In this document: positions 2,484 to 29,573 of the stretch, piece by piece
Numbering within the stretch: position 1 is the stretch's first letter
Layout: each line of letters starts with the position of its first letter
Source: Promethearchaeota archaeon
Lineage (GTDB): Archaea; Asgardarchaeota; Lokiarchaeia; Sigyniarchaeales; SOKP01
Assembly: GCA_016930515.1 (NCBI GenBank)
Contig: JAFGGO010000063.1
Span: forward strand, 1-30,682
Length of the DNA: 30,682 nucleotides
Direction of reading: 5' to 3'
Notes under the pieces: generated by a model
Told to the model about the DNA's origin: nothing
Seen by the model: only the letters and a program-made list of their open reading frames with translations
The model's database searches: none
Translations under genes and position numbers: made by a program

Positions 2484-4280
2484 ATGTTCTTCGTACAGGA
2501 AATTCGAGCAAAAATAATATCCATCCTAAAAAATAACGGTTCGGAAATCAATTATAACAATCTACGCTTTAAAATCGCCCAAGTTCTCCCTGATGGCATT
2601 TATATAAGTCAAGGTTATATCGAATTACCTGAAAACAAAAAGAGCGAATTTTTTGAGTTAATACTATCGCGTGATATAAGCTCAAAAAATTCTCCTTTAA
2701 CTGAAAAAACTATCGGTTATGAAAATGTTTTAGCAATCGTGGAATGTGAGACCCATATAAGCTCAATGATCGGAACATTACAAAAATTAGTTAATTTGAA
2801 AAAAATAAGAAATCGGGAAACGGTAATAAGCAAGAAAAAAAATTTATGTAAGGAGTATCCTTCTAAATTCGAATTGAAGAACACCAGTAAACCATATCTC
2901 CTCGTTTATCTCTTTGATAAAGAATATGAGGGGAGAAACAACGAAGCCTCTGTAATGGATCTTTATAATCAGACAAGTAAATTTAAAATGAAAGAACTTC
3001 CAGACGAGATGATTGTAGATGGTAAAGACTTATGGTTCTTGAATCCAGACCTTTTCAAGAAGAAGTTAAATGGATACGAGATCGGTTGGAGTCGACGAGA
3101 AGTATTAAATTGCCCTCAGTCGTGCTATATATGCAATAAAAAAATAATTCGCCAGCATTTTTTTTACGAACAATTGTGCATGAGTTGTGGGGATTTGAAC
3201 TATTTAAAACGCGTTCAAACAGCTGATTTATCTGAAAAGATTGCTTTGGTATCCGGCGCTCGTGTGAAAATCGGATATTATGTTTGTTTACGCTTGCTTC
3301 GGGCAGGAGCTCAAGTAATTGCGTTAACGAGATTTCCACACGATGCGGCTCTGAGATATTTGAGAGAAAAAGACTTTAATGATTGGAAGGATAGGTTGCA
3401 TGTTTACGGATTGGATTTTCGAGACATTGGAAGCGTAAATTTATTCATTCAGTTTTTAAAAAATAAATATTCCTATATAGATATCATTATTAACAACGCT
3501 GCTCAGACCGTCAGGCATCCTCCTATTTATTATAGTCACCTGATGGATAACGAGCGAAAGGCACTTCACGAGCTTCCAGAATCCACTAGGGGGCTCTTAC
3601 AGGGCATAAAAGATTTTTACGAAATTGGCAACCAGAAACTCTTGGAAAGCAATGAAAAATATGACCTCGTTCCTATGATGGTGCCCAAGTTTCAAAAATC
3701 CGCAGAACTATCGCAAATTCCCCTAAGCGAGGAAGATAACTACGAATATGGTGAAACATACCCTAAAGGACAATACGATCAATATGGGGAACAACTCGAT
3801 CTCCGAGATTTTAACTCGTGGGTAATGCGGATGGATGACGTCAGCGTTCCTGAAATATTAGAGGTTCAATTGATCAATCAAGTAGTTCCTACAATGTTTG
3901 TCAGCAAATTAAAAACAATGCTAAAAGCAAGTCCACATCAAGTAAAATATATCGTAAATGTATCTTCTCCAGAAGGGCAATTTCGATTTGATAAAGAAAA
4001 CCGCCACCCTCATACTTGTATGGCAAAAGCAGCACTAAACATGCTTACATTTAGTATCGCAGAAGATTATGCACAGGATAAGATATTCGTTACCTGTGCT
4101 GATCCTGGATGGGTTACCGAACAATTTCCCTTGAAAGGACGGAGCAAGAAAAATCGCAAATTTGCAATCGATTTAGAAGACGCTGCGGCTCGAGTGTGCG
4201 ATCCAATTTTTATGGGGGAAAACGAGCATAAATATTGGCGAGGGTATTTTTTTCGGCACTATAAAAAATCGGACTGGTAA
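2484..4280 (+). CDS. Atypical SDR-family NAD(P)-dependent oxidoreductase with Zn-finger and ~190-aa N-terminal extra domain
   Basis: CYIC...HFFYEQLCMSC Zn motif, Rossmann ALVSGARVKIG, IINNAAQT, IVNVSS, HPHTCMAKAALN (Tyr-less catalytic motif) and ADPGWV. Confidence 0.85.
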   Translation: MFFVQEIRAKIISILKNNGSEINYNNLRFKIAQVLPDGIYISQGYIELPENKKSEFFELILSRDISSKNSPLTEKTIGYENVLAIVECETHISSMIGTLQKLVNLKKIRNRETVISKKKNLCKEYPSKFELKNTSKPYLLVYLFDKEYEGRNNEASVMDLYNQTSKFKMKELPDEMIVDGKDLWFLNPDLFKKKLNGYEIGWSRREVLNCPQSCYICNKKIIRQHFFYEQLCMSCGDLNYLKRVQTADLSEKIALVSGARVKIGYYVCLRLLRAGAQVIALTRFPHDAALRYLREKDFNDWKDRLHVYGLDFRDIGSVNLFIQFLKNKYSYIDIIINNAAQTVRHPPIYYSHLMDNERKALHELPESTRGLLQGIKDFYEIGNQKLLESNEKYDLVPMMVPKFQKSAELSQIPLSEEDNYEYGETYPKGQYDQYGEQLDLRDFNSWVMRMDDVSVPEILEVQLINQVVPTMFVSKLKTMLKASPHQVKYIVNVSSPEGQFRFDKENRHPHTCMAKAALNMLTFSIAEDYAQDKIFVTCADPGWVTEQFPLKGRSKKNRKFAIDLEDAAARVCDPIFMGENEHKYWRGYFFRHYKKSDW

Positions 4281-4301: not shown

Positions 4302-5192
4302 CTACATCCATTTTCCTAAACTCGATTGGTCCATGGCGTCGGGATCCTCTCCAATATTCATGAGTTTTAGCATCACATCCAAGTTCAAGTATCTCTCGGT
4401 TAAACTCTTGATTTTTTCAAATTCACCCCCTCGAATTAATAATTCTCGAATCTTCCCCGAAGCTCGAAATGCGTATCGTACATATTGAAGTGCCGTTTTA
4501 AATCCATATATGAGAAGAAGATCGTGAACTTGAGTTAAAAATAAACCAGGACTGGAAAGACACTCCCATTCTTTCATTAATTTAGTGGAATTATTTGTTA
4601 AGCTATTAGCGTTCGATATCATCTCCTTTAATTTGTTTTTATCAATATTATTTTTTGGATATCGTATTGGGAGATTTAAAAGGCATCTGAAAGGAGTAGA
4701 TATGGTATATAAACGGAAGTAATGTTTTAAAAGACCATATACATAATATCTATTTCTGGTGGTATAACCAATTCCTTCTGTCTTCGAGTATGGGATTCCA
4801 AGGTACTCACGCACTTCCTTATAGTCTGCTAAACTCCCTTTTTCGTGAGAAATTAAAAAGGAATAAGCGGAATAAACCACGATCCCGTATCGAGCGGGAA
4901 GCACATAAACATATCGCAATGGTAAGGTGTTTTCAAGAAGTTCGAGGTCAGTGTAATTATCTAAAGACATGAACCCATTAAGCATCTCTACGATCTCTTC
5001 GGATTGCTGTAATTGTTCCGGGGTTTCGCGATGGATCCACACGCTCTTACTATAAGGGACCTTACTGGGCATGACTCTATGGTCGCCTGCTATTTTGCTT
5101 AAATAATTGAAAGTTAACCCCCATTCTGATTTCCAATGAGGACTTTTGAAGTGATACCTTGATTTTTTATATTTTTGGTGTTGATTTTCCAT
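4302..5192 (-). CDS. Hypothetical protein with C-terminal PIP-box-like motif, directly downstream of the ncRNA array
   Basis: 296-aa ORF, Tyr/Arg/Lys-rich, ending QSSLGKWM (QxxLxxW-hydrophobic). No family confidently recognised. Confidence 0.8.
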   Translation of the reverse strand: MENQHQKYKKSRYHFKSPHWKSEWGLTFNYLSKIAGDHRVMPSKVPYSKSVWIHRETPEQLQQSEEIVEMLNGFMSLDNYTDLELLENTLPLRYVYVLPARYGIVVYSAYSFLISHEKGSLADYKEVREYLGIPYSKTEGIGYTTRNRYYVYGLLKHYFRLYTISTPFRCLLNLPIRYPKNNIDKNKLKEMISNANSLTNNSTKLMKEWECLSSPGLFLTQVHDLLLIYGFKTALQYVRYAFRASGKIRELLIRGGEFEKIKSLTERYLNLDVMLKLMNIGEDPDAMDQSSLGKWM

Positions 5193-5219: not shown

Positions 5220-5330
5220 TTAGGACAGGTTTCAAACATTCGTTTGCGTTTCAAAAATGCTTTTCTTTTGAAACTGGTTTTTTATCATCGTGTTCAAAAA
5301 GAACACTCAAATTTTATGTCCTAATACAGT
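5220..5330 (-). ncRNA. Structured ncRNA unit 1 (proximal; likely also the 5' leader of the 296-aa gene)
   Basis: ACUGUA-[UUAGGACA]-UAAAAU-UUGA-[GUGUUC/GAACAC]-GAU-GAUA-AAAAACCA-[GUUUCAAAAG AAAAGCA UUUUUGAAAC]-G-[CAAAC/GUUUG]-AAACC-[UGUCCUAA]. Confidence 0.75.
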
Positions 5331-5387
5331 TATGAGATTCTAGTATACTTATAATAAAAAATTTATTGATCATAAATTAAAAAAGGG

Positions 5388-5505
5388 TTTAGAACAGGTT
5401 CAGAAAACGCACGTTTTCTTACAAAAAATGTAGTTCTTTTTGTATTGTTTTTCCATCATCGTCCTTTGAAATTTTAAAGAACTCAGTCAATGTGTTCTAA
5501 ACAGT
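5388..5505 (-). ncRNA. Structured ncRNA unit 2
   Basis: ACUG-[UUUAGAACA]-CAUUGA-CUGA-[GUUCUUU/AAAGGAC]-GAU-GAUG-GAAAAACAA-[UACAAAAAG AACUACA UUUUUUGUA]-[AGAAAAC/GUUUUCU]-GAACC-[UGUUCUAAA], followed by CCCUUUUUU. Confidence 0.75.
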
Positions 5506-5579
5506 TTTTACATAATAAGAAAAAAGTATTTAAAAAATTATTTACACTAAATGCCTTTAATATAATAATATAAGAATTA

Positions 5580-5698
5580 TTAGGGCAGGTTTCCGAGTAG
5601 GACTTACTCGGCAGAAAACGTGCCTTTCGGTTTTCTGTTGTTTATTCATCATTGTTCTCATTAAAACGGAAGAACTCAATTTTCGTGCCCTAAACAGT
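5580..5698 (-). ncRNA. Structured ncRNA unit 3
   Basis: ACUGU-[UUAGGGCA]-CGAAAA-UUGA-[GUUCU/AGAAC]-AAU-GAUG-AAUAAACAA-[CAGAAAAC(C)G AAAGGCA CGUUUUCUG]-[CCGAGUA/UACUCGG]-AAACC-[UGCCCUAA]. Confidence 0.75.
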
Positions 5699-5769
5699 TA
5701 CTTAAATTATAAGAAAATTTTAAAGAAAAAGTTTAGTATGAAATTAAAGAGTTTTTTAGAAAAAAGCCT

Positions 5770-5860
5770 TTTAGGACAGGTTAGCAATCAAACTATTACC
5801 CGATAAAATGTATTTTTTTATCGCTATTTTTCCACTCTGTTTTCCAGTATCCTAAACAGT
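5770..5860 (-). ncRNA. Structured ncRNA unit 4 (short variant lacking the kink-turn arm)
   Basis: ACUG-[UUUAGGAUA]-[CUG GAAAA CAG]-AGUGGAAAAAUAG-[CGAUAAAA AAAUACA UUUUAUCG]-[GGUAAU/AUUGCU]-AACC-[UGUCCUAAA], followed by GGCUUUUUU. Confidence 0.7.
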
Positions 5861-5919
5861 AATTAATTAATACATAAATCTAGTTTAAAAATCTTTTAAA
5901 CTCAATTCTAATCTGGACT

Positions 5920-8070
5920 TTAAGATATTTTACTGTTTTTGGTCATTGGAGCAATTATTCCAATTATGGGAATTGTAGGATTTTTTATTAGGAGTGGCAA
6001 TTGATTGCTTGTAATCAAAAACACTAGTGTGTCAGATGTTCGATTAGAAGTAATTGATTGAATGGAAGCACAAATTTTATGTATTAAATTCGTGTCGTAC
6101 CAAGAATCTAATATCTTAATGCGTTTTTTCCTATTACATAATTTCACGATGGTATCGAGTTTACACTTCAAAAACCCTTGGAGGTTGGTTTTGGACGCCT
6201 CGTAAAGGTTGTGAAGAAGGTTATTTTTAGAATCAAAAACCAATCCAGAACCCATGGACACGTCCAAAACACAACCATTTTCCCTTATTCCTGTTATTTT
6301 TTCGTTTAGTGATTTTTGTTCGAACTCAAGAAAATTTCCATAAGGATGCAACTCAAACATCTCCAAGACATTCTTGAGTTTTTTTTTGGGTAGGGGGCGT
6401 GATGATAATGAAAAAAAGCGTTTCAAACCATTTCGTTTGAATGAAATATATAATGAAGTTCTACCTCTTTTCTGTGATTGTAGATAGCTTGAAATTGTTT
6501 CCTTTTTATGTGTTCCTTTTTTAATTGGAAGTTCAAGGTTACAACCGCTCTTTTCAAGATGAATAAGCCATGAAATAATATTTGGTGCTATTTCAAAAGA
6601 GTGTTGATCCTTTAAGTTTAATTCTTGGACGATACAACCCAAATACTTGTTTAAAGCTGGAGATATTTCGCTCGAACGGACGATTCCTTTTGAATATTGT
6701 ACTATTGGTGCGATCCTATTTTTTGGTATCAGTTGGAGCAATTGATTTGTATCTAATTGCATTTGAGTGCAAATTATTTTGCTTAAATCTCTTTCCATCC
6801 TTACTAGAGACAACGCATCAATTGATAAGAGAAGAGTGCCATTAAATTGAATTAATTTTCCTTGATCTTGAATGATGTCATTATCGTGAACATCTTTATT
6901 TATTTTTCTAAGCTCTGCGTGGAATTTAACTCCAATATCTGAATCATTTGCTAAAATACTGATTATGTGAAAAGAACTTCTTGGATTGTGTATTATGAGT
7001 TTTTTTACCCAAACATCGCCGTTTTTTGCTAAAATTTTCAAAACTCCAAAAGGAATATCCTCCTCAAATCGGGCAAGTTTTTGAATATAGCGCTCGTAAG
7101 CGAGTTCGTATGCCTTAAATTCTTCTTTTTTAGAGATTTTTGATAAATTTAAAAGAGCTTGAGAAAAAATGTAAGGATCTTGATCTTTGACGAGAATTTC
7201 TAAGACTTCTTTTTTTATTTGCTTATTAGAAAAGTGGTGAATGACTTGCAATAGACCCCATTTACAATGCTTTTCCCCTTTTTTAGCTAAAATGGGGAAT
7301 ATTTCAGGATTACTTTTTTGGGAATAAGCCGCCATGGTTCGAAATTCTTCTGAATCAAGTATTTTATCAAATTCAAGGAAAGTTTTTATCGTACCGAACA
7401 ATAAATCGTAAATGTCCTTTCCTCCTTTATTATAATAAAGATCATTTAACAATTCTAATCGAGACATGAACCAATCTGGATTACCTGAGTTTGCAAGTTC
7501 ATATAACATCTTCTCAACTATTTCTTTAATTGCCTTAGGAGCAATTTTTGTCAAACAAGCCACGATTTGAGATTGCATGGTAGAATTGAAACCGAATGGA
7601 AGGTTTCTGGGGGTATAATCTGCTGAATAGTAAGATGTGATTAGCATCTTGCTGAGACCCACTTCAGCGATTCCTTCCACATAGGACTTGAGGGCTACAA
7701 AATGCTCCTCTGGAGGCAGGTTGAGAGTTTTTCCTTCTGATGTTTGTACGAATTCTTTTAATAAATCAAACCCACCATTCCGTAGATTCAATGCTTCTTG
7801 AGCAGAGACCGTTCTTATTGCCGTGTGAACGCAAGTAACCTCCACCTCCTCGTTTCCTTTTTTAAATACTATTCTATTATGTGATTTATTATTTACGACA
7901 TTAATGCGAGCTCCAATTTCAACATTAATTAAATCCTTAATTTTATCATTATCTAAAGTGAACCATGCCTCATAGCGATAGCCGTTTTGGAGAGGGATTT
8001 TATCAAGAATAGGGTCAAATTTAAAATATTTCATGTAATAATTGCATTTTTCGGTGTCCTGTATGGTCAT
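5920..8070 (-). CDS. Large hypothetical protein with central HEAT/LRV-like helical repeats
   Basis: 716 aa. Repeats such as IFPILAKK, VLEILVKDQD, VLKILAKNGDVWVK and IISILANDSDIGVK. N- and C-terminal domains unassigned. Confidence 0.8.
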   Translation of the reverse strand: MTIQDTEKCNYYMKYFKFDPILDKIPLQNGYRYEAWFTLDNDKIKDLINVEIGARINVVNNKSHNRIVFKKGNEEVEVTCVHTAIRTVSAQEALNLRNGGFDLLKEFVQTSEGKTLNLPPEEHFVALKSYVEGIAEVGLSKMLITSYYSADYTPRNLPFGFNSTMQSQIVACLTKIAPKAIKEIVEKMLYELANSGNPDWFMSRLELLNDLYYNKGGKDIYDLLFGTIKTFLEFDKILDSEEFRTMAAYSQKSNPEIFPILAKKGEKHCKWGLLQVIHHFSNKQIKKEVLEILVKDQDPYIFSQALLNLSKISKKEEFKAYELAYERYIQKLARFEEDIPFGVLKILAKNGDVWVKKLIIHNPRSSFHIISILANDSDIGVKFHAELRKINKDVHDNDIIQDQGKLIQFNGTLLLSIDALSLVRMERDLSKIICTQMQLDTNQLLQLIPKNRIAPIVQYSKGIVRSSEISPALNKYLGCIVQELNLKDQHSFEIAPNIISWLIHLEKSGCNLELPIKKGTHKKETISSYLQSQKRGRTSLYISFKRNGLKRFFSLSSRPLPKKKLKNVLEMFELHPYGNFLEFEQKSLNEKITGIRENGCVLDVSMGSGLVFDSKNNLLHNLYEASKTNLQGFLKCKLDTIVKLCNRKKRIKILDSWYDTNLIHKICASIQSITSNRTSDTLVFLITSNQLPLLIKNPTIPIIGIIAPMTKNSKIS

Positions 8071-8226
8071 ATTTTCTCCAAAATCTTTTTGAATAATATT
8101 AATCCCTCCCCATCCTATTTTGTTTTTGTTTTGTTTTTGTTGAAATTAATAATGAAAGGTAAGATTTAATACCTTACCTCCATACCATATTAACATAATA
8201 CTAATTAGATCAGAAGGTAAGAATAT

Positions 8227-9081: not shown

Positions 9082-10296
9082 CTATTTAGGATTTATAGAG
9101 GTGATTTGATCGTTAAATTTTATCCTTTCGAGCTTGTTTATCACTCTCATGCCAGTCACGGCGTCTATAGTGTTCGGTAGCTTGAAAATCCTGTGAAGAT
9201 CAAAAGAACCATCTTTAGATCGGAAATTTTCGTTATCAGTGAGTGCAACTCCCTCATCGTCCTTGAGTTTTATTATTAAATTCTGAATTTGTTCAACATC
9301 CAATTCTTTTAAATTCTTCCCTTCCTCTATACAATACACGTGATAACCCTTAAATCCACTATGAATGACTCGAACGCTCCATCCCAAATCTACTAATTTT
9401 TCCGTTAGGATGTCTCTTTTTACAGCAGCTTCCTCTAAACACTTAAGACAAAATCCTTCCTTTCCTATCACATGAGGCTTGTGATCAGAATCTACATCAA
9501 ACGCCGCAATGATTCGAGGTTGTGGATATCCTCTGCCATAATAATCTCGTTGAGGGATCAGCATCGAAGCTAACGAATAATATATTCTTACGGGTAATTG
9601 TCCTTGCCTGAACAAATATAAAATTGATTGTTTTATTTTTGATGTTGGCGTGTGTTTAGCCGTTTTTGTTAACTTGCGTTTTATTCCATACCAGTTTCCA
9701 CTACCAAGAAGAACACGAACATGTCTACTTGGTATAAATGGTTCAAACCAATTGGGTAATTCAAAATCTTCTTCGTAATACTTTAAAACAGTTCCATTAT
9801 CTAAACGAACTTTATATACTTGTATCTTTGGAGGGATTTCCAAATTAGTCTCAAATCTGGGAGCACAAATAACACAAGTCTGTAATCCCAATCGTTTACG
9901 CTTATATTCGTAAAAGTCAATCCATTTTTGAGTGATGGTGGTCTGTTTGAGTTCGATCATCGTCCTTTCAGATTCAACATCAAGACCATCTATTTCTGTA
10001 GATTGGCCGTCTTGGAATTTCATTGGTACCGAATGATAAAATTCCAATCCTAATTCCTTCGATAAAACGGCCAACCCTCTCACTTCGTACCAATAATTTC
10101 GGGTGCGGAGTTTCTTGTTGTCTTGGAATATGACGGCAACGCCGTGTGGAATTTTAAATCTCGCAATTTCGTATGGTAAAGGATCGATTCTGATCCCGTC
10201 GAGATCGTTTATAATATATAATAACAAGGTGTCAAGTTCGTGTTCTTGAATATTTCTTGATATGGTATTTTTACCTTGTTGAATGATGAATTTCAT
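9082..10296 (-). CDS. Fusion of a PD-(D/E)XK nuclease-like domain and an archaeo-eukaryotic primase (PriS-type) domain
   Basis: TEIDG...MIELK nuclease motif. AEP motifs AFDVD, HSGFKGYHVY and DLHRIFKLPNT. H..H..CLKC Zn site after motif I. Confidence 0.8.
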   Translation of the reverse strand: MKFIIQQGKNTISRNIQEHELDTLLLYIINDLDGIRIDPLPYEIARFKIPHGVAVIFQDNKKLRTRNYWYEVRGLAVLSKELGLEFYHSVPMKFQDGQSTEIDGLDVESERTMIELKQTTITQKWIDFYEYKRKRLGLQTCVICAPRFETNLEIPPKIQVYKVRLDNGTVLKYYEEDFELPNWFEPFIPSRHVRVLLGSGNWYGIKRKLTKTAKHTPTSKIKQSILYLFRQGQLPVRIYYSLASMLIPQRDYYGRGYPQPRIIAAFDVDSDHKPHVIGKEGFCLKCLEEAAVKRDILTEKLVDLGWSVRVIHSGFKGYHVYCIEEGKNLKELDVEQIQNLIIKLKDDEGVALTDNENFRSKDGSFDLHRIFKLPNTIDAVTGMRVINKLERIKFNDQITSINPK

Positions 10297-16122: not shown

Positions 16123-17523
16123 TTATTTTTTTTCGAACACGTATATTTTTCTTTTGACAACTTGTCCCTTTTTAGCATCGAGGAGAGCCTTTGTATGCTT
16201 TTCCTGTAATTGCAATTTTTGGTTTGACTTGTTTACGATTCGTTGTCCATCCAAAATTGGAATGAATTTGAACTCGTAGGAGGTACCAATTTTTTCAATG
16301 TTTATTTGAAGATCCCCTCCATCGACGGTTGTAAAAACAGGTGCAACCAACACGATCCTCCCTCTGGGTTTTAGTATGATATTTGAGTTCTGAAATAAAT
16401 CTTGATAAAGGGGTTCTAATTCGGAAGAGATTAGCTCCTTAATCTCGTTGTAATAAGGTCTCTCCTTGAAAAAGGGTCCTAAAGAAGGCTCGGTACAAAT
16501 TCCATCAAATGAACTTGGTTGGAAATGCCTTGAAAGATCTCTTATGTCGAGGGTATCAAATCGTTCGTTTAATAAGTATGGAACCTCTTCTTCTATCTCT
16601 TCTAAAAGCCAATTCATGTTGCGAATAGTATTCTCAACTTTTTTTCCATCTATATCGGAACCGTATACTTGAAAACCCTGAATGCTTGCAAACATTGGGA
16701 TGGTTCCATTTCCTACAAATGGATCTAATATCATTTTGCTTTCTCTTTCTTCAAATAGATTTAGGAAGTTAAGCATTATCAAGGCAAGCTTGGGGGAAAT
16801 CGAGCTTTTAAATTCTTTAAATGGTCTTCCCTCGTCAACTTGCTTTTTAAAGTTTGGATCGTCTGCCGTGTAAGTTCTTCCGATATAGACGCCTTCTTCG
16901 GTAAAACCAAATACGATTTCCGCTCTATCCTCGTTAAACAAGCCGTATTTTGTAAGATGATGAGGAAAAATGGGATTTAGATTTCCAGATTTTATATTTT
17001 TTTCAGGATATTTGTAATAAAGAGATTTTTTTGCACCCTTCTTTTTGAGAATGGACATGATAGTCTTGTTTAAAAAGGGTAGAAAGTGCTTGATGAGAAC
17101 TTGTGAATAATATTCGTCGTCGTACAAGTCGGGATATATAGAAACCGCAAAAAAAATGCTTTGTTTATTGATTGTTACAAATGTTTTTTCCAGTACAGGG
17201 CCTAATATTGACGCTATTTTTTCTCTTTTTTTCTCAACGAGCTTGTATTTTTCTATATGTTGGGGAAATGCCTCTTTTATGGTATTTACGTGAATAAAAT
17301 CAAATATCTTACAAATTTTCTGTGTACCACCCAGAATGAACTGAAATTCCATGAGTTTATCAATGTAATACTTATCTTGTTCCAAGTTTTCAAATTCAAC
17401 AATAGCAATATTTGCTGAATAATCGGTAATCTTTCCCTTGAATTGCGAATTTTTAAGCACATTATCTAATTCCGTTAGTGATAATTGCCAATTTGACCCT
17501 AAAACAAAAATATATTTATCCAT
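16123..17523 (-). CDS. Trm11/TrmG10-like SAM-dependent RNA methyltransferase
   Basis: SISPKLALIMLN, ILDPFVGNGTI, YGSDID and ICTEPSLG. Long N-terminal (THUMP-like) region. Confidence 0.75.
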   Translation of the reverse strand: MDKYIFVLGSNWQLSLTELDNVLKNSQFKGKITDYSANIAIVEFENLEQDKYYIDKLMEFQFILGGTQKICKIFDFIHVNTIKEAFPQHIEKYKLVEKKREKIASILGPVLEKTFVTINKQSIFFAVSIYPDLYDDEYYSQVLIKHFLPFLNKTIMSILKKKGAKKSLYYKYPEKNIKSGNLNPIFPHHLTKYGLFNEDRAEIVFGFTEEGVYIGRTYTADDPNFKKQVDEGRPFKEFKSSISPKLALIMLNFLNLFEERESKMILDPFVGNGTIPMFASIQGFQVYGSDIDGKKVENTIRNMNWLLEEIEEEVPYLLNERFDTLDIRDLSRHFQPSSFDGICTEPSLGPFFKERPYYNEIKELISSELEPLYQDLFQNSNIILKPRGRIVLVAPVFTTVDGGDLQINIEKIGTSYEFKFIPILDGQRIVNKSNQKLQLQEKHTKALLDAKKGQVVKRKIYVFEKK

Positions 17524-17662
17524 AACGCGTACTAAATCGATTATATGAGATTAAAATGCAGTTTCGTTTATCTATTTTTCCTTTTTGTCAAAATTTTAAA
17601 GAAATATTAGCGAAAATTCTTGTAAAAAGCAAAGGCCTTTTTTGTAGAATACTTAAAGCGCT

Positions 17663-19009
17663 TCACGACTTCTTAACTTTAAGCCAAAGTTTAAATGCCT
17701 TCGTTGGTTTCCCTCTCCAAATTGCATTTTTGCCTGTTTTTTCGAATTCTCTGACCTCTTCCTCAGTGTAGTCTAATTCGCTAGCCTTTTTTGATTTCTG
17801 CTCTAGTTTCTTCCCGATTTCTTTAATATCCTTTTCGCTAAGAGACTCTTCTTCAGAGGTTACAGGACCAAACTGTACTTCTTCAGTTTCTTCGAGCTTT
17901 TGTTCCTTGTTTTTTTCAAGGTCAATTTCGATCTCGTATTTTTCTCCGGTAATATCTCCTAGTGCGCTCATTATATCTTCCAAGTCCTCTCTTCTACGGG
18001 TTTCTGGTACCATTTCGATTATTTTATCTTCGATTTGGGGCGATTCTTTACCTTTTGCTTTTTCATATGCTTTTTTCTGTTTTAACTTTTCTTCTCTTGC
18101 TTTTTTTAAATCTGCAACGATGTTCGAATAATTCTCTTTTAGATAATTCAAGCTTAAGTTTACGATATCTGAAATGCTCTCCCAATTGTCCTCTTTAATA
18201 ATCGCCTTGACCCAGTAAAATAATTCTAAGATTAAATTAACCGTTACCACCTTTCCTTCTGTATATGCCCCTATCGTGAGCCATCTTAAAATATTCGCGA
18301 TTAGTACATTGTTGTCTAATGCAGTTATGCCGTACTCTCGTCCTAGAGAAGAAAATATGGAGAGGTTCCCAAATCCTACAACCTTACCCTTGTAATACTC
18401 CACGGCCACCATCAATGGGATATTAGGGCTATCTTGCTCTGTCCAATCGCTACCGTTGTATGTTCTCGTCCAACAATTGAGACCTCCATTTAAAATGACA
18501 TCGATCTTAATCTCGTCCTCAACATCGATAAAATCTAAAATTTTCAGGGAACAAGCGCTAGAATATACTACCTGTCTAACATGTTCCGTTAAGATATGGG
18601 GTTTTATTTTGTTTAAAAGCGGTCGTTTTTGCATGTTAATGTAATTCATTGAATCATTTACTTCAGTTGGGAGAAATTCAAACCCAAAATTACTTGTGAG
18701 TTCGTTTAGATTCGTTTCGTTCATCAAATCCCCTCCGCTTGAACTCACAATAAGCAAACTACCTCCATTTTTTACATATTCTTCAAGGACATTGATCTCG
18801 TTTTCGGATAAATTTGTATTCTTAGGCGTTGAAAGCAATATAACATCGTAAGTTTCTACCTTGCTTTTTGAATCAAAACCAGCTTGAATTTTACCCAATT
18901 TATACCCCGATGAAAATAAAAATTCTGTAAATTCAGCGTAACTTGGAGCCTCTAAAGTTAAATTATTATTATGAGAGTAATCCAATCCAATAGTAGGGTC
19001 GCTTGGCAT
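17663..19009 (-). CDS. IFT52/GldG-like (GIFT) domain protein with RHH-like segment and acidic tail
   Basis: IGLDYSHNN, YVKNGGSLLI, NLNELTSNFG, GKVVGFGN and DNNVLIANILRWL. Tail motif FEKTGKNAIWRGKPTKAF. Confidence 0.7.
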   Translation of the reverse strand: MPSDPTIGLDYSHNNNLTLEAPSYAEFTEFLFSSGYKLGKIQAGFDSKSKVETYDVILLSTPKNTNLSENEINVLEEYVKNGGSLLIVSSSGGDLMNETNLNELTSNFGFEFLPTEVNDSMNYINMQKRPLLNKIKPHILTEHVRQVVYSSACSLKILDFIDVEDEIKIDVILNGGLNCWTRTYNGSDWTEQDSPNIPLMVAVEYYKGKVVGFGNLSIFSSLGREYGITALDNNVLIANILRWLTIGAYTEGKVVTVNLILELFYWVKAIIKEDNWESISDIVNLSLNYLKENYSNIVADLKKAREEKLKQKKAYEKAKGKESPQIEDKIIEMVPETRRREDLEDIMSALGDITGEKYEIEIDLEKNKEQKLEETEEVQFGPVTSEEESLSEKDIKEIGKKLEQKSKKASELDYTEEEVREFEKTGKNAIWRGKPTKAFKLWLKVKKS

Positions 19010-19189
19010 TATAATCCATTTGTATTTTTTAGTGTTAAGATTTCGATAAATTCGTTTGTTTTCTACATAGAAAAACGATTTTTAATAATTCGATTAAAAT
19101 ATTATCAAATCTTGTATATTTTATTTCAAGTAAGCCTCTATTTAAGTATTTTTGTGTGTGAATGAATTCACTTATACAATCATTTGAGT

Positions 19190-19981
19190 TTATATGTTAC
19201 GGTAATTTCTCTCAATAACTGACTTGTGAAGATTATTTCTCTGTCTAAGGATTTCAAACGCAATTATTGTAGCTGCTGAATGGAGGGGGAGAGATTCTGT
19301 AAAATCGCCCTCGTATGGAATTATAAGCCTTAAATCTGCGTGTTCTAAAATTTTGCTTTTAATTCCCCTTTTTTCACCTCCTATCACAATTAGTAAAGGT
19401 GGTTTTAATTCACTTTGATATATCGATTGACCATTGGATTTATCCGCACAAGCAATGGTATAATCTCTAGATTTGAAGAAGCTCAATAATTTAGCTTGAT
19501 CTTCCTCTAATGCGATTGGGATTAATTCAGAGGTGCCCGCAGAAGATTTAATTATAATATTGTCTACTTCAAACCAATTTCTTTGTTTCATGACGATCCC
19601 GTCTATTCCTGCAGCATATAACGACCTTATCGTATATCCGAGGTTAAATGGATCTTCAATTCCATCCAAAAAGAAAATTACAAGAGGTTTTGGTTTTAAA
19701 AGCTCGTCTAATTTTTGGTAGGATCTCTCGGAAACTAGGGCAGCAATTCCACCATGAGTTTTTCCAATTGCGTGCTGTTCGAACCAATCCTGATCAACGC
19801 CCTCGATCTTTATTTTTTTTATTTCTGCTTTTGATAAAATTTGTTTTATATTTTTAATTCTATTTAAATTCCTCTTTCTTTGGAGCTTAGCCGTGTTATA
19901 AAAAACAGTCAATACTTTTCGATATTTTGATCTTAACACTGCATTTACAGCCATACTTCCTTCAATAATAATAGATCGCAT
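19190..19981 (-). CDS. SpoU/TrmH-family (RlmB-like) RNA 2'-O-methyltransferase
   Basis: IEG..AV, HGGIAA, LDGIEDPFNLGYTIRS, IGGEKRGI and IPY...SL SPOUT motifs. Confidence 0.9.
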   Translation of the reverse strand: MRSIIIEGSMAVNAVLRSKYRKVLTVFYNTAKLQRKRNLNRIKNIKQILSKAEIKKIKIEGVDQDWFEQHAIGKTHGGIAALVSERSYQKLDELLKPKPLVIFFLDGIEDPFNLGYTIRSLYAAGIDGIVMKQRNWFEVDNIIIKSSAGTSELIPIALEEDQAKLLSFFKSRDYTIACADKSNGQSIYQSELKPPLLIVIGGEKRGIKSKILEHADLRLIIPYEGDFTESLPLHSAATIIAFEILRQRNNLHKSVIERNYRNI

Positions 19982-20083
19982 GGATTTTCCTTATTTTAAT
20001 TTGTAGGTCGAAAAATTATCATAATTAAGCTTGATCGAATGAATTCATAATGAATAATGATTCTCAATAGTTATATTCTTGCC

Positions 20084-20962
20084 TTATTCAAAATGGATAT
20101 ATTTTTTGATATTTTTTAGGAACCTCATTTCAGGTGAGTGCGTTTTAATATTATTTTTTAATAATTTTTTTTTAGATATTTTTTCATTTTGAGAACGAGT
20201 TATAAAAAATTGAAAACAATCGGGATTTCTAAGTGCCTCCCGTCCGATCATTAATCCAAGAATTAATTCATTCCACTTTTTTTGCGTATCCAAGGACAAT
20301 TTTTGCTTAATATTTTGAATATCCTGATTTGTACGAATATTTCCGTTTATAATTATCGGCATTCCAGCTTTAAGAGATGTTTGCAAGAATTCCCAATGCG
20401 GTTCCGAGATAGAGGGCTGCTTAGCGTGTTTAAAATGTATGATTGTTGGTGCTAAACGAGGATCGTCAATAGATTCAATAGAAGATAAAAAATCCAAACA
20501 TTTATTGTAATACATTTCTTTTGAATTAAGTCCCAACAACATTTTACAGCTAATATGAAATCGATGCGATTCAGAGTCGCCTAAAAAAACCTCAATAAGG
20601 TTTCTTAACCTCTTTGTTCTTTTAACGAGAGCAGCACCCTCTCCTGCGGATATTATTCGGGGATCTGGACAACAAGCATTAATACACACGCCATAAATAT
20701 TCGCTCTTTCAGGATTTTTTGAATAAAACGACTTTAAACACTCAGGCAGGCGAAGCATGTCGTTAACATTATTAGTGAGCACTTGAATCCATTGTCGATG
20801 ATTCTTGATTTGAAAAGTGTCAATATGATCCCAAACCCTCTGCCGTTCCTTAATTAATTCTTTTAAATTTATCATTTCCGTATAAGAGTCTGTTATTTCG
20901 GGAAATAAAGCCCGAAAAGCCCAGCAACTTATATTTTTCATCGGAGCTAAGTGCAATTCCAT
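20084..20962 (-). CDS. dus: tRNA-dihydrouridine synthase-like FMN TIM-barrel protein
   Basis: LAPM, YTEM, INACCP (catalytic Cys), GAAL, INGNI and MIGREALRNP. Divergent IHFK in place of HGR. Confidence 0.75.
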   Translation of the reverse strand: MELHLAPMKNISCWAFRALFPEITDSYTEMINLKELIKERQRVWDHIDTFQIKNHRQWIQVLTNNVNDMLRLPECLKSFYSKNPERANIYGVCINACCPDPRIISAGEGAALVKRTKRLRNLIEVFLGDSESHRFHISCKMLLGLNSKEMYYNKCLDFLSSIESIDDPRLAPTIIHFKHAKQPSISEPHWEFLQTSLKAGMPIIINGNIRTNQDIQNIKQKLSLDTQKKWNELILGLMIGREALRNPDCFQFFITRSQNEKISKKKLLKNNIKTHSPEMRFLKNIKKYIHFE

Positions 20963-21022
20963 TTTTCGGCGTTGTATATTATATTTTTTTTGATAATTTT
21001 ACACATAAATAGAGGGAAAAAT

Positions 21023-21910
21023 TTATATATCAAAATTTATGCTTCTATGATTCTTATTCTTTACAACAAAGATATCTAATACCACATGTGCTAAGTTCGG
21101 CCCATAGCTCTTCACAAATCGTTCTGAAGTTAAATTACTGAGATATCCATTGTTATTTGCGATGGTACTAAAAGTGTTGAATAAATCTACATAATTATAT
21201 TTGTCAACGACTCCTTCGAAATGAATAGTCGTACCTTCTTCTTTAGTGAGCGTGAGTGCGTCCTCTATATATTCGATCGGGGCAGGGAAGACTCCCATCA
21301 CGATCCTATCTGCTTTGATTCCCGCTTCGCTTAATTTTCTTACTTCTACTTTACAATCCCCATTAATGGGAATAATTTTATTTTCTAAGTGGTTTAGTAT
21401 TATATTCTCCTTCAAATAATGAAATGACACGGGATTTAATTCGATGCTGTAGATTTTTGCTACTTTAGTGTGCTTGGCAATAGGGAGGGAAAAATATCCG
21501 ATTCCTGCAAACATATCAACCAAAATTTCTCCTGGTTTGACGAAAGTCGTTAAAAATTTTCGTTCCTTTAAATTCCCCTTGCTAAACATTATTTTCGTGA
21601 TATCAAGCTTGTATTTAACTTCATGCTCTTTGTGAATGATAATAGGTTGGTCAACACCCATTAAAAATTCAATCCTTTCTGGTTGGCGCATTTGTCCTTT
21701 TATAATGCCTAAGTTGAGGTAAATCGATTTTATATAAGGATATATCTTGAAGCACGCTTCACCAATGAGTATTTTCTTTTCTAATAACCGTTTGTCCAAT
21801 TTTAAAATCATTATACTTCCAATTGACTGAAAACCTCGAGGAAGAATTTCTAATTCTTCCTTTTCAAGAATAAATTTTAAATGTTCCTGCAGAACTCGTT
21901 TAAATCGCAT
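21023..21910 (-). CDS. taw2: Trm5/Tyw2-family SAM-dependent tRNA-modifying enzyme (likely Taw2)
   Basis: HKEHEVKYKLD, MFSKGNLKER, VDMFAGIGYFSLPIA, ELNP, ADRIVMG and VKSYGP. Confidence 0.75.
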   Translation of the reverse strand: MRFKRVLQEHLKFILEKEELEILPRGFQSIGSIMILKLDKRLLEKKILIGEACFKIYPYIKSIYLNLGIIKGQMRQPERIEFLMGVDQPIIIHKEHEVKYKLDITKIMFSKGNLKERKFLTTFVKPGEILVDMFAGIGYFSLPIAKHTKVAKIYSIELNPVSFHYLKENIILNHLENKIIPINGDCKVEVRKLSEAGIKADRIVMGVFPAPIEYIEDALTLTKEEGTTIHFEGVVDKYNYVDLFNTFSTIANNNGYLSNLTSERFVKSYGPNLAHVVLDIFVVKNKNHRSINFDI

Positions 21911-25182: not shown

Positions 25183-26538
25183 ATGTGTGAATTACCCCCT
25201 GAATTTGACGATTTTGATTTACAACACTTATCCCGCCCAAATGCCTTACCTGAAGATATAGATTATGAAACTCATATCATTGGAACATATACGGCAATTC
25301 TTCCTAGAAAAATGGACGCTTTTTATATGATGCAGGCGGTTTGCGTTGAACAATCGACGGGAACTTTTGTTCCTGTTCCAGCCGAAACTCCCGAAACGCG
25401 TAGGAGACATGTAGCAAAGGTGATAGGTTTGTGGCAAATTCCTGATTTTGAATACGATGGTTCGGAAGACTTCTTTGGGAGCCCGAAACAAAGACAATAT
25501 GTAATACAGATTGCTTTCCCGCTGAATTTTAAACCCCAATTCCCCATGTTATTCACAACTATTTACGGCAATATTTCAATGGGTGGTCCCCTTAAGTTGG
25601 TTGATGTTCGGTTTCCTAAAGCCTTTTTGAGCGAATTTAAAGGGCCTAAATTTGGAGACGTGGGTATCAGAAAAATATTAGGCGTGAAAGAACGTCCACT
25701 CTTGAACAATATGATTAAACCTTGTGTTTACACCGATCCAAAAATAGGCGCAACATTAGCATATGATGCTGCAGTAGGTGGGTGTGATGTGATTAAGGAC
25801 GACGAACTCATAGCGGATGTTGAATTTAATCCCGTCATAGATAGGACAGTTGCTTTCATGGAAGCGCTTGACAAGGCGGATTCTGAGAAAGGAGAAAAAA
25901 CCCTCTATACGGTTAATATAACTGATAGAGTAGATAGAATGTTTGAGTTGGCCGATATAGTGCAAGAACATGGTGCTAACGCGTTGATGGTAAATCATAT
26001 CTCAACGGGATATTCGGCGATGAGAAAACTTGCAGAAGACCCAAGCGTTAAAGTTCCGATTTTGGGACACATGGACCTTGCAGGTGCTTTCTATCAGGAT
26101 CCATTGAGCGGCATTTCGAGTCCGTTGGTTTTAGGAAAATTTGGACGTTTAGCTGGCTGTGACACGATCGTCCATCCTGCACCGTATGGAAAAGCCCCTA
26201 CGCTTGCTGATAGATTCAAAGAAACAGCTCGCCAAATGGTAATGCCGATGAGAAATGCCCCCCATATCAAGAGAACGCTTCCAATGCCGAGTGGAGGCAT
26301 TACCGTGAGTCTAGTTGAAAAAGCGGTTGCTGATCTTGGAAAAAATATCATGATAGGAAGTGGCGGAGGCATTCACGCCCATCCTAGTGGTCCAATAGCG
26401 GGTGCCAAGGCCTTTAGGCAAGCAATTGATGCCGTAATGAACGGAATTCCCGTGAAGCAATACGCAAAAGACCATAAGGAGCTCGCAGAAGCATTAGGTT
26501 TATTTGGGTTTAAAAAGACCGAATTTACTTCCGTTTAA
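25183..26538 (+). CDS. RuBisCO-like protein (form IV RLP)
   Basis: EQSTGT, GPKFG, MIKP, DVIKDDE, YGK, PSGG and GGGIHAHP. Lacks the Lys177 (KPC) and Arg295 (HMD) equivalents of true carboxylases. Confidence 0.93.
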   Translation: MCELPPEFDDFDLQHLSRPNALPEDIDYETHIIGTYTAILPRKMDAFYMMQAVCVEQSTGTFVPVPAETPETRRRHVAKVIGLWQIPDFEYDGSEDFFGSPKQRQYVIQIAFPLNFKPQFPMLFTTIYGNISMGGPLKLVDVRFPKAFLSEFKGPKFGDVGIRKILGVKERPLLNNMIKPCVYTDPKIGATLAYDAAVGGCDVIKDDELIADVEFNPVIDRTVAFMEALDKADSEKGEKTLYTVNITDRVDRMFELADIVQEHGANALMVNHISTGYSAMRKLAEDPSVKVPILGHMDLAGAFYQDPLSGISSPLVLGKFGRLAGCDTIVHPAPYGKAPTLADRFKETARQMVMPMRNAPHIKRTLPMPSGGITVSLVEKAVADLGKNIMIGSGGGIHAHPSGPIAGAKAFRQAIDAVMNGIPVKQYAKDHKELAEALGLFGFKKTEFTSV

Positions 26539-28817: not shown

Positions 28818-29573
28818 ATGATAGACGAAAAATTAATTGACGAAGCAGTAGATATCATCAGGAACTCTGAGCGCATCGTTTTCTTCACGGGTGCTGGTCA
28901 TTCCACGGAATCTGGCATAGAAGATTTCAGATCCCCTGGTGGAATATGGGATAGATACGATCCCTCGATTTACGCGAGTTATCAATTTTTTCTAAGAGAT
29001 CCAAGTAAGTTTTGGTCCTTACATAAAGAATTAGAAAAAATTATGCAAAATGTTGAGCCGAATCCTGGTCATTATGCTATTGCTGAACTAGAGAAGATGG
29101 GGAAAGTAAGCGCCATCATTACTCAGAACATCGACATGCTCCACCAAAGAGCGGGAAGTGGTTCTTATAAAAACATTCCAATATACGAATTACATGGATC
29201 CTATGGCAAACTCGAATGCGTCAAGTGTCATACCATTTCTAATATTGAAGATGTTGATTACCATAGTGTTGATTATCCCGTTTGTAATTGTGGAGGTTAT
29301 ATCAAGCCCCGTGTAGTACTTTTTGGGGAGGCATTGCCAACGGGGGTGTTAGAAGGTGCAATGAGAATGGCAGCCAATTGTGATTGCTTTATTTTAGTTG
29401 GGTCTTCGTTGCAAGTTTCTCCTGCTAATTTTATGCCAAGTATTGCCAAGGAAAACGGAGCAAAAACCATTTTTATCAATAAAGAACCAACCGCAATGAA
29501 TCACCTCGCAGATTTATTTCTTGAAACGATGTCCGCTCCCGTTTTGAGCAAGATCATCGAAAAATTACGCTAA
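28818..29573 (+). CDS. cobB: Sir2-family NAD-dependent protein deacylase
   Basis: TGAGHSTESGIEDFR, TQNIDMLHQRAG, ELHGS, CxxC...CxC, VLFGE and VGSSL. Confidence 0.95.
   Translation: MIDEKLIDEAVDIIRNSERIVFFTGAGHSTESGIEDFRSPGGIWDRYDPSIYASYQFFLRDPSKFWSLHKELEKIMQNVEPNPGHYAIAELEKMGKVSAIITQNIDMLHQRAGSGSYKNIPIYELHGSYGKLECVKCHTISNIEDVDYHSVDYPVCNCGGYIKPRVVLFGEALPTGVLEGAMRMAANCDCFILVGSSLQVSPANFMPSIAKENGAKTIFINKEPTAMNHLADLFLETMSAPVLSKIIEKLR

Follow-up and report, generated by a model that had tools for sequence, protein, structure and literature searches.

To our knowledge, the prokaryotic systems that write DNA from a non-coding RNA (retrons and DRTs) and telomerase all use enzymes of the reverse transcriptase family. 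Retrons and the class 2 DRTs (DRT2, DRT9 and DRT10) bring together a polymerase, a dedicated structured ncRNA and a third protein, occur in patchy, conflict-type neighbourhoods, and carry a candidate template between stems; in DRT10 the template is delimited by flanking stem-loops (10.64898/2026.06.29.735271). Accessory primase-polymerases (PolpTN2, LigD Pol, Prim-PolC, CAPP and the DRT7 primase domain) have the AEP fold and motifs I-III and lack PriL; none is described with a cognate ncRNA in the literature searched, and PMC5862659 mentions no Asgard family of such enzymes. Here we report an Asgard locus that has these features in common with both groups, including a structured ncRNA beside the polymerase, and that differs from retrons and DRTs in that the polymerase is a PriS-like primase joined to a PD-(D/E)xK nuclease; no match to the reverse transcriptase family was found among the module's genes. 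The module is further set apart from retrons and DRTs by being archaeal, by its kink-turn, and by having several paralogous RNAs with a TATA element apiece.

We analysed a stretch of 30,682 nucleotides (the window) from a genome of 4.0 Mb and 35% G+C, in which the following features bear on the argument.

2484..4280, plus strand: DUF6602-like, zinc-ribbon-like and short-chain dehydrogenase protein, beside the module at six loci of the clade
4302..5192, minus strand: P296, a 296-aa all-helical protein with no family or fold match
5221..5330, minus strand: RNA unit 1, complete; kink-turn strands 5307-5310 and 5284-5289
5350..5362, minus strand: TATA-like element of unit 1
5390..5505, minus strand: RNA unit 2, complete; kink-turn strands 5483-5486 and 5455-5460
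5526..5538, minus strand: TATA-like element of unit 2
5581..5698, minus strand: RNA unit 3, complete; kink-turn strands 5676-5679 and 5648-5653
5719..5731, minus strand: TATA-like element of unit 3, the poorest positional fit
5772..5860, minus strand: RNA unit 4, degenerate; kink-turn hairpin gone through a 22-nt deletion
5883..5893, minus strand: TATA-like element of unit 4
5920..8070, minus strand: 716-aa accessory protein, with full-length homologs before the array at loci L003 and L050
8227..9069, plus strand: CARF-winged-helix (HFX_2341-like) regulator, found only here and at L003
9082..10296, minus strand: 404-aa PD-(D/E)xK nuclease fused to a PriS-like archaeo-eukaryotic primase-polymerase

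An array of four units had been proposed in a preliminary description made from the letters alone, and its ends and spacing hold: read on the minus strand, the units begin at 5860, 5698, 5505 and 5330, with periods of 162, 193 and 175 nt. The P1 pairs, the abutting hairpins P3 and P4, the A-rich linker and the AACC are all present as claimed, and the distance from the end of unit 1 to the ATG of the P296 gene (at 5192) is 27-28 nt, where 27 nt had been given. Units 1-3 are full RNAs of ~110-120 nt, consisting of a closing helix, a kink-turn hairpin, the A-rich linker, variable hairpins and ACC, and they fold more stably than 60 dinucleotide shuffles (z-scores -4.6, -3.2 and -3.8). The further arm P2 that was attributed to every unit is found in units 1-3, where it is the kink-turn hairpin, and not in unit 4, from which a 22-nt deletion has removed it; alignment with the L003 ortholog places this deletion in unit 4 here and not in unit 4 of L003. 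Unit 4 correspondingly scores 40 bits against the RNA model, as compared with 96-106 bits for units 1-3.

Because each unit is preceded by its own TATA-like element, the units look like separate small-RNA genes. The element is T-rich, sits at -33 to -27 behind a stretch rich in A, and is present in 23 of 26 family members, as against 3.0 +/- 1.6 in shuffles; its position ~30 nt upstream is separate support for the minus strand as the coding strand. No T-tract follows unit 1, for which reason its RNA may read through into, or drive, the P296 gene. The scan of Rfam 15 that had been called for gave no matches in the window, neither at the gathering threshold nor at a second threshold (best E 0.95, which is chance level). 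Judged from sequence, the array would encode stand-alone small RNAs of a family for which we found no earlier description.

Some 30 members of this RNA family were gathered, 88-142 nt long and with covarying helices. Their constant core runs from P1 through a strand of 5-9 nt, the kink-turn arm, a linker and one or two variable hairpins to ACC and the 3' strand of P1; the variable hairpins are free in length and sequence. The linker motif, short and rich in A, usually contains AAC; it reads AGC at L026 and L051 and is base-paired at L005 and L007. When 24 members are compared across P1 and P2, 91.6% of cells are paired, as against 31-46% in slid controls of the same test, and two-sided changes occur in 11 of 13 pairs; relatedness inflates this test. 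Pairing is thus retained despite sequence divergence, as had been proposed. Relative to the L003 orthologs, unit 2 has compensatory changes in P3 and P4 and unit 3 has one in P1, at a distance where the gene is 55% identical at fourfold-degenerate sites.

The P2 arm is a kink-turn hairpin of the box C/D type: NGA (the D-like box), a stem that nearly always begins G-C, U-A, a 3-nt bulge RAU ending in U, and then GAU or GAA. The C-stem, the 3-nt bulge and the tandem G.A/A.G pairs are found in units 1-3 and in nearly all homologs, the non-canonical pairs being G.A, A.G and mostly U.U, and positions G25, A26, G27, C43, A45, G47 and A48 are at least 90% conserved. Kink-turns are bound by L7Ae-family proteins, and archaeal box C/D sRNAs share this C/D-type motif and the expected L7Ae site (PMC4316175). 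The genome has two L7Ae-family genes, and we infer that L7Ae would bind the kink-turn of the family. At L033, the RNA (6344-6478) has a variable hairpin of ~60 nt with internal short C-rich repeats and is separated from a UDG-fused P296 by a Cas12f-like zinc-ribbon gene.

Of the 20 loci with a P296 homolog, 18 have the RNA, a count that includes L116 (weak, E 0.12) and L100 (permuted); as to the other two, L032 is cut at the gene end, and at L060 there is a structured spacer that could not be classified. At L050, L052, L113 and L115 the RNA was found though it was outside the model that found it. The idea of a paralogous small-RNA family with a cognate protein is upheld by these counts together with the covariation. 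The nuclease-primase is present at 16 of the 20 loci, a figure that includes loci reached through the enzyme; the unbiased figure is 8 of 12 loci reached through P296 queries alone, and of the four misses three are short or cut contigs and the fourth comes from the assembly holding L003. Since the RNA also lies near the enzyme at L026 and L051, where no P296 was found (nor was one found in genome G112 with the query used), it is tied to the enzyme as well as to P296. In the sequence available, the RNA was not found at nuclease-primase loci L060, L068, L070, L071 and L101.

Of 400 Asgard genomes, 14 encode the nuclease-primase. Relatives of the module carry the labels Promethearchaeota, Helarchaeota, Hermod-, Heimdall- and Njordarchaeota, which marks the host as an Asgard archaeon. 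A search of 26 enzyme-free genomes with the RNA model gave nothing below E 0.05; the same search missed the L026 training copy, so this speaks for near-consensus members only. No enzyme homolog was found in viral contigs. RNA, P296 and nuclease-primase very probably form a genuine three-part genetic module of Asgard archaea. In sum, the preliminary description is supported as regards an RNA family with its protein; it overlooked the kink-turn, the separate promoters and the nuclease-primase at 9082-10296. At L060 (2670-3080; L102, 1560-1900) the enzyme and P296 genes diverge from a G+C-rich spacer that folds strongly; it does not fit the RNA model and is possibly a far-diverged member. A contig filed as bacterial (Minisyncoccales), at L032, carries an enzyme of 46% identity and an HhH-fused P296, through misbinning or transfer.

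P296 is modelled as all-helical with a pLDDT of 85. Comparison of its model with the PDB, ESM Atlas and viral models, together with a wide structural search, brought up nothing beyond generic helical matches, the best at Z 5.1, and the lack of a match in those searches does not make the fold new; neither a Nop domain nor a toxin fold is among the matches listed. No match was found in Pfam, NCBIfam or PADLOC, and a profile search showed no similarity to the genome's PriL. P296 was also considered as an altered AEP/RRM fold, against which stands a model without strands. The protein has few relatives, with 18 representatives at E < 0.001, one of them a repeat-rich artefact. Conservation falls on Arg, aromatic, Pro and Leu residues, and no acid is invariant, which suggests a role in binding rather than catalysis. 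A PIP-box-like motif lies at its C-terminus (4305-4328); such tails are found in 4 P296 homologs from 3 lineages, as compared with 10 of 2424 long ORFs of the genome, and other homologs are extended by UDG, HhH, LRR or double zinc-ribbon domains. Helarchaeal-type homologs at L028 (639-2120) and L029 (7730-9175) are split by an insertion of ~250 residues. A truncated remnant of a second P296 gene (G000:C101:20692-20922), with no RNA seen upstream, adjoins three tandem paralogous genes of ~190 aa.

The enzyme is modelled with a pLDDT of 90 and matches the archaeal core primase (Z 16.5, rmsd 3.4, 204 aligned); its nuclease part (residues ~60-165) matches the AF1548 fold at Z 10.9 and a Pyrococcus repair endonuclease at 9.3. 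Both the fold and the E-D-ExK residues of the PD-(D/E)xK group are present, as are motifs I-III and the fold of the AEP superfamily. Nuclease residues E71, D103, E115 and K117 are invariant in all homologs aligned, and so are polymerase residues D267, D269, H319, D366 and R369. DNA_primase_S is found in 15 of 24 enzyme homologs. Against the replicative PriS family the enzyme scores 32 bits, below the cut-off of 143.5, and the genome's replicative PriS and PriL lie on another contig, C138; the nuclease-primase is extra to the replicative primase. At L027 (2141-3391) one TAG interrupts the enzyme gene. Distant primase homologs of 23-28% identity, some including the nuclease part, occur at L063, L076 and L081, with no RNA or P296 detected.

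Several neighbours differ from locus to locus. The 716-aa protein is represented only by its N-terminal part at L006 and L007. A Top6A/Spo11-like gene stands directly before the nuclease-primase at L025 (9872-10534), L026 (8675-9955) and L051 (6710-7981). L026 and L051 have the operon order RNA, two helical genes of no known kind, Top6A/Spo11-like gene and enzyme, and represent the module variant in which P296 was not found. Elsewhere in the window are a tandem set of three paralogous genes for membrane proteins of ~200 aa, none of which reaches the cut-off of a Pfam family (131-2004), a RuBisCO-like protein and a Sir2-family gene (25183-26538 and 28818-29573), and, ~6 kb from the module, an RNA-modification cluster (THUMP-type methyltransferase, SpoU, Dus and Trm5/TYW2; 16123-21910) that was not seen at other loci.

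By analogy with retrons and DRTs, the most likely function of the module would be RNA-templated DNA synthesis without a reverse transcriptase, a reading that we propose tentatively. We rank it first because of the retron/DRT layout, the copying of RNA by PriS-like enzymes and a parallel at the motif CCUG. Without its PriL part, a PriS-like domain acts as a reverse transcriptase and copies RNA in vitro (PMC3973330). Human PrimPol favours the site 3'-GTCC-5', which equals the common 3' motif CCUG of the family, and is said to need the G of its site single-stranded (PMC5934617); the parallel is weakened because the U and G of CCUG lie within P1 and vary in several members. In a check for selection on a cDNA hairpin, G-U pairs were not clearly fewer in the variable hairpins (15 of 343) than in P2 (11 of 151).

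A more specific form of the proposal, about which we are more hesitant, is that the primase-family polymerase writes DNA from its dedicated kink-turn RNA, possibly onto ends cut by its own nuclease at PCNA-loaded sites, and that interchangeable paralogous RNAs set the product. In the proposal as first stated, L7Ae would sit on the kink-turn and P296 would grip the conserved junction (P1, the linker AAC and the 3' ACC), carrying the particle to DNA by a PCNA-type tail or by UDG, HhH or zinc-ribbon fusions. The primase-polymerase would copy part of the RNA into short DNA. Its start would be the conserved ACC(U) next to P1 or the A-rich linker between kink-turn arm and P3, and synthesis would be de novo or onto an end produced by the enzyme's own nuclease domain; several paralogous RNAs would yield several products. 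As with retrons and DRTs, the role would most likely be in defence or conflict, and the module's patchy range and its CARF or DUF6602-like neighbours fit a conflict system.

The layout of the family RNA resembles that of ciliate telomerase RNA, with a closing stem, a boundary hairpin, a short single strand and further stems, which we take as a lead only. Differences are that no pseudoknot was seen, that there is no TERT-type enzyme, and that the genome has no matching repeat arrays: a genome-wide tandem repeat scan gave no long linker-derived arrays (a 15-nt repeat on contig C46 is coding), and neither dispersed copies nor long linker-derived repeats were found in the genome, except for a run at 8118-8139 noticed post hoc. 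This run, in the module's divergent promoter region, consists of four T(3-6)G units, a pattern picked after the fact, and is the sole such run in the genome. Its minus strand repeats the A-rich RNA linker; its length differs at L003, and it was not seen at other loci.

Two other readings fit nearly as well as templating, and three fit worse. It is possible, if unlikely, that the RNA is an inhibitor or sensor, such that RNA and P296 keep the nuclease-primase off until an invader removes or cuts the RNA, the variable hairpins serving as baits. The array directly ahead of the gene recalls type III toxin-antitoxin systems and AbiF, in which structured RNA copies also lie just upstream of a protein gene, and freely varying hairpins on a fixed core, an intact nuclease, the CARF neighbour and the patchy range are all as expected of such an inhibitor. 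However, the units have separate TATA-like elements and some copies lie downstream of genes, unlike the single-transcript repeats of type III systems that are cut from one leader. P296 shows no invariant catalytic residues, neither an endoribonuclease signature nor a toxin fold is among its matches listed, and a separate polymerase-nuclease co-occurs with it. Inhibition would also leave the invariance of the polymerase site unexplained, and the PIP tails point toward DNA clamps.

We consider it somewhat less probable again that the RNA is a scaffold, tethering L7Ae, P296 and the enzyme as a cut-and-refill particle for DNA repair or recombination on PCNA, with DNA as the template. The PIP tails and the UDG, HhH and zinc-ribbon fusions would suit such a particle, as would the Top6A/Spo11-like genes directly before the enzyme and an enzyme tree that broadly follows Asgard groups, its deep branches being open. 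At L100 (4826-4990 of G211:C140, upstream of a P296-enzyme operon) the RNA is circularly permuted, so that the kink-turn stem closes the molecule and P1 is an internal hairpin, which indicates that the shape of the RNA counts for more than where its ends lie. A scaffold role, however, would not explain why three or four paralogs with distinct hairpins are kept across two species diverged to the extent seen at the fourfold-degenerate sites, and most Asgard genomes searched lack the module.

That the RNAs are guides, similar to those of TIGR, bridge or box C/D systems, whose single strands flanking the kink-turn pick a DNA or RNA target for the nuclease-polymerase, is improbable, and among the roles of guide, template and decoy first suggested for them it is the least supported. 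The C- and D-like boxes favour guides; the L100 copy has the canonical C-first, D-last order, where in most other members the D-like box precedes the C-like one, and when orthologs are compared, the 6-7 nt strand ahead of the D-like box is one of the parts that change fastest. Yet the free strands, at 6-10 nt, are rich in A and carry little information, and there is no second C'/D' motif: box C/D guides have C, D', C' and D with two guides of 10-12 nt, whereas these RNAs have one kink-turn, 5-9 free nt before the D-like box, an extra helix junction and a link to a single locus. Nor do the 3' flanks of P1 share the ACA of archaeal H/ACA sRNAs. TIGR-Tas and IS110 bridge RNAs likewise have arrayed or adjacent C/D-like RNAs next to a protein gene, and IS110 has been linked to Nop5 (PMC11213020). 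The units here, of 88-142 nt with separate promoters in the spacers, differ from the dual repeat-spacer units of ~36 nt in TIGR-Tas, and P296 has no Nop or RuvC/HNH match among those listed. Pairing to 21 tRNAs and a 23S fragment was not above shuffles (16S and most of 23S lie outside the assembly). The array lacks the near-identical repeats and unique spacers of CRISPR; the CRISPR repeats that the genome does have lie on other contigs and bear no relation to it, and the genome's spacers match the module only in stretches of 12-18 nt, several of them inside leftover repeat sequence.

The four-way layout of the RNA recalls SAM-I, which would count in favour of a cis-acting 5' leader of the P296 gene, acting as a riboswitch or in L7Ae autoregulation. 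The RNA usually lies ~20-90 nt from the start codon, and leaders with an L7Ae-bound kink-turn are known in archaea (PMC5539422, PMC6298567). This reading is very unlikely and largely refuted, and the earlier picture of an array simply feeding into the protein gene does not hold: at L028, L029 and L115, copies of the RNA lie 3' of genes, each with its own TATA and T-tract, and the RNA is not a 5' leader because of these downstream copies and the permuted one. Three of the four window units are distant from the gene with TATA elements of their own, and no Rfam riboswitch matches. Least probable by far is a small MITE-like mobile or repeated element whose palindromes act at the DNA level, as tandem copies and an additional copy 2.4 kb away at L029 might suggest, since the only convincing copies in the 4.0-Mb genome are the four at this one locus and none are scattered, viral contigs have none (16 RNA-pattern matches are at chance level), the kink-turn and G-U pairs are strand-specific, and the promoter is copied with each unit.

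No account of this RNA-protein system was found in the literature searched, which covered few subscription papers. Small enough to be rebuilt in vitro (two proteins, one 100-nt RNA and L7Ae), it offers a compact nuclease-polymerase with a swappable RNA that may interest genome-engineering groups. Even if the RNA were an inhibitor or a scaffold, the locus would add an uncatalogued kink-turn RNA family and a protein without a fold match. If RNA-templated synthesis is correct, the old proposal that primases copy RNA (PMC3973330) would become testable directly on a natural substrate, and a primase-family enzyme with its own RNA would represent a new class, from the lineage nearest to eukaryotes.
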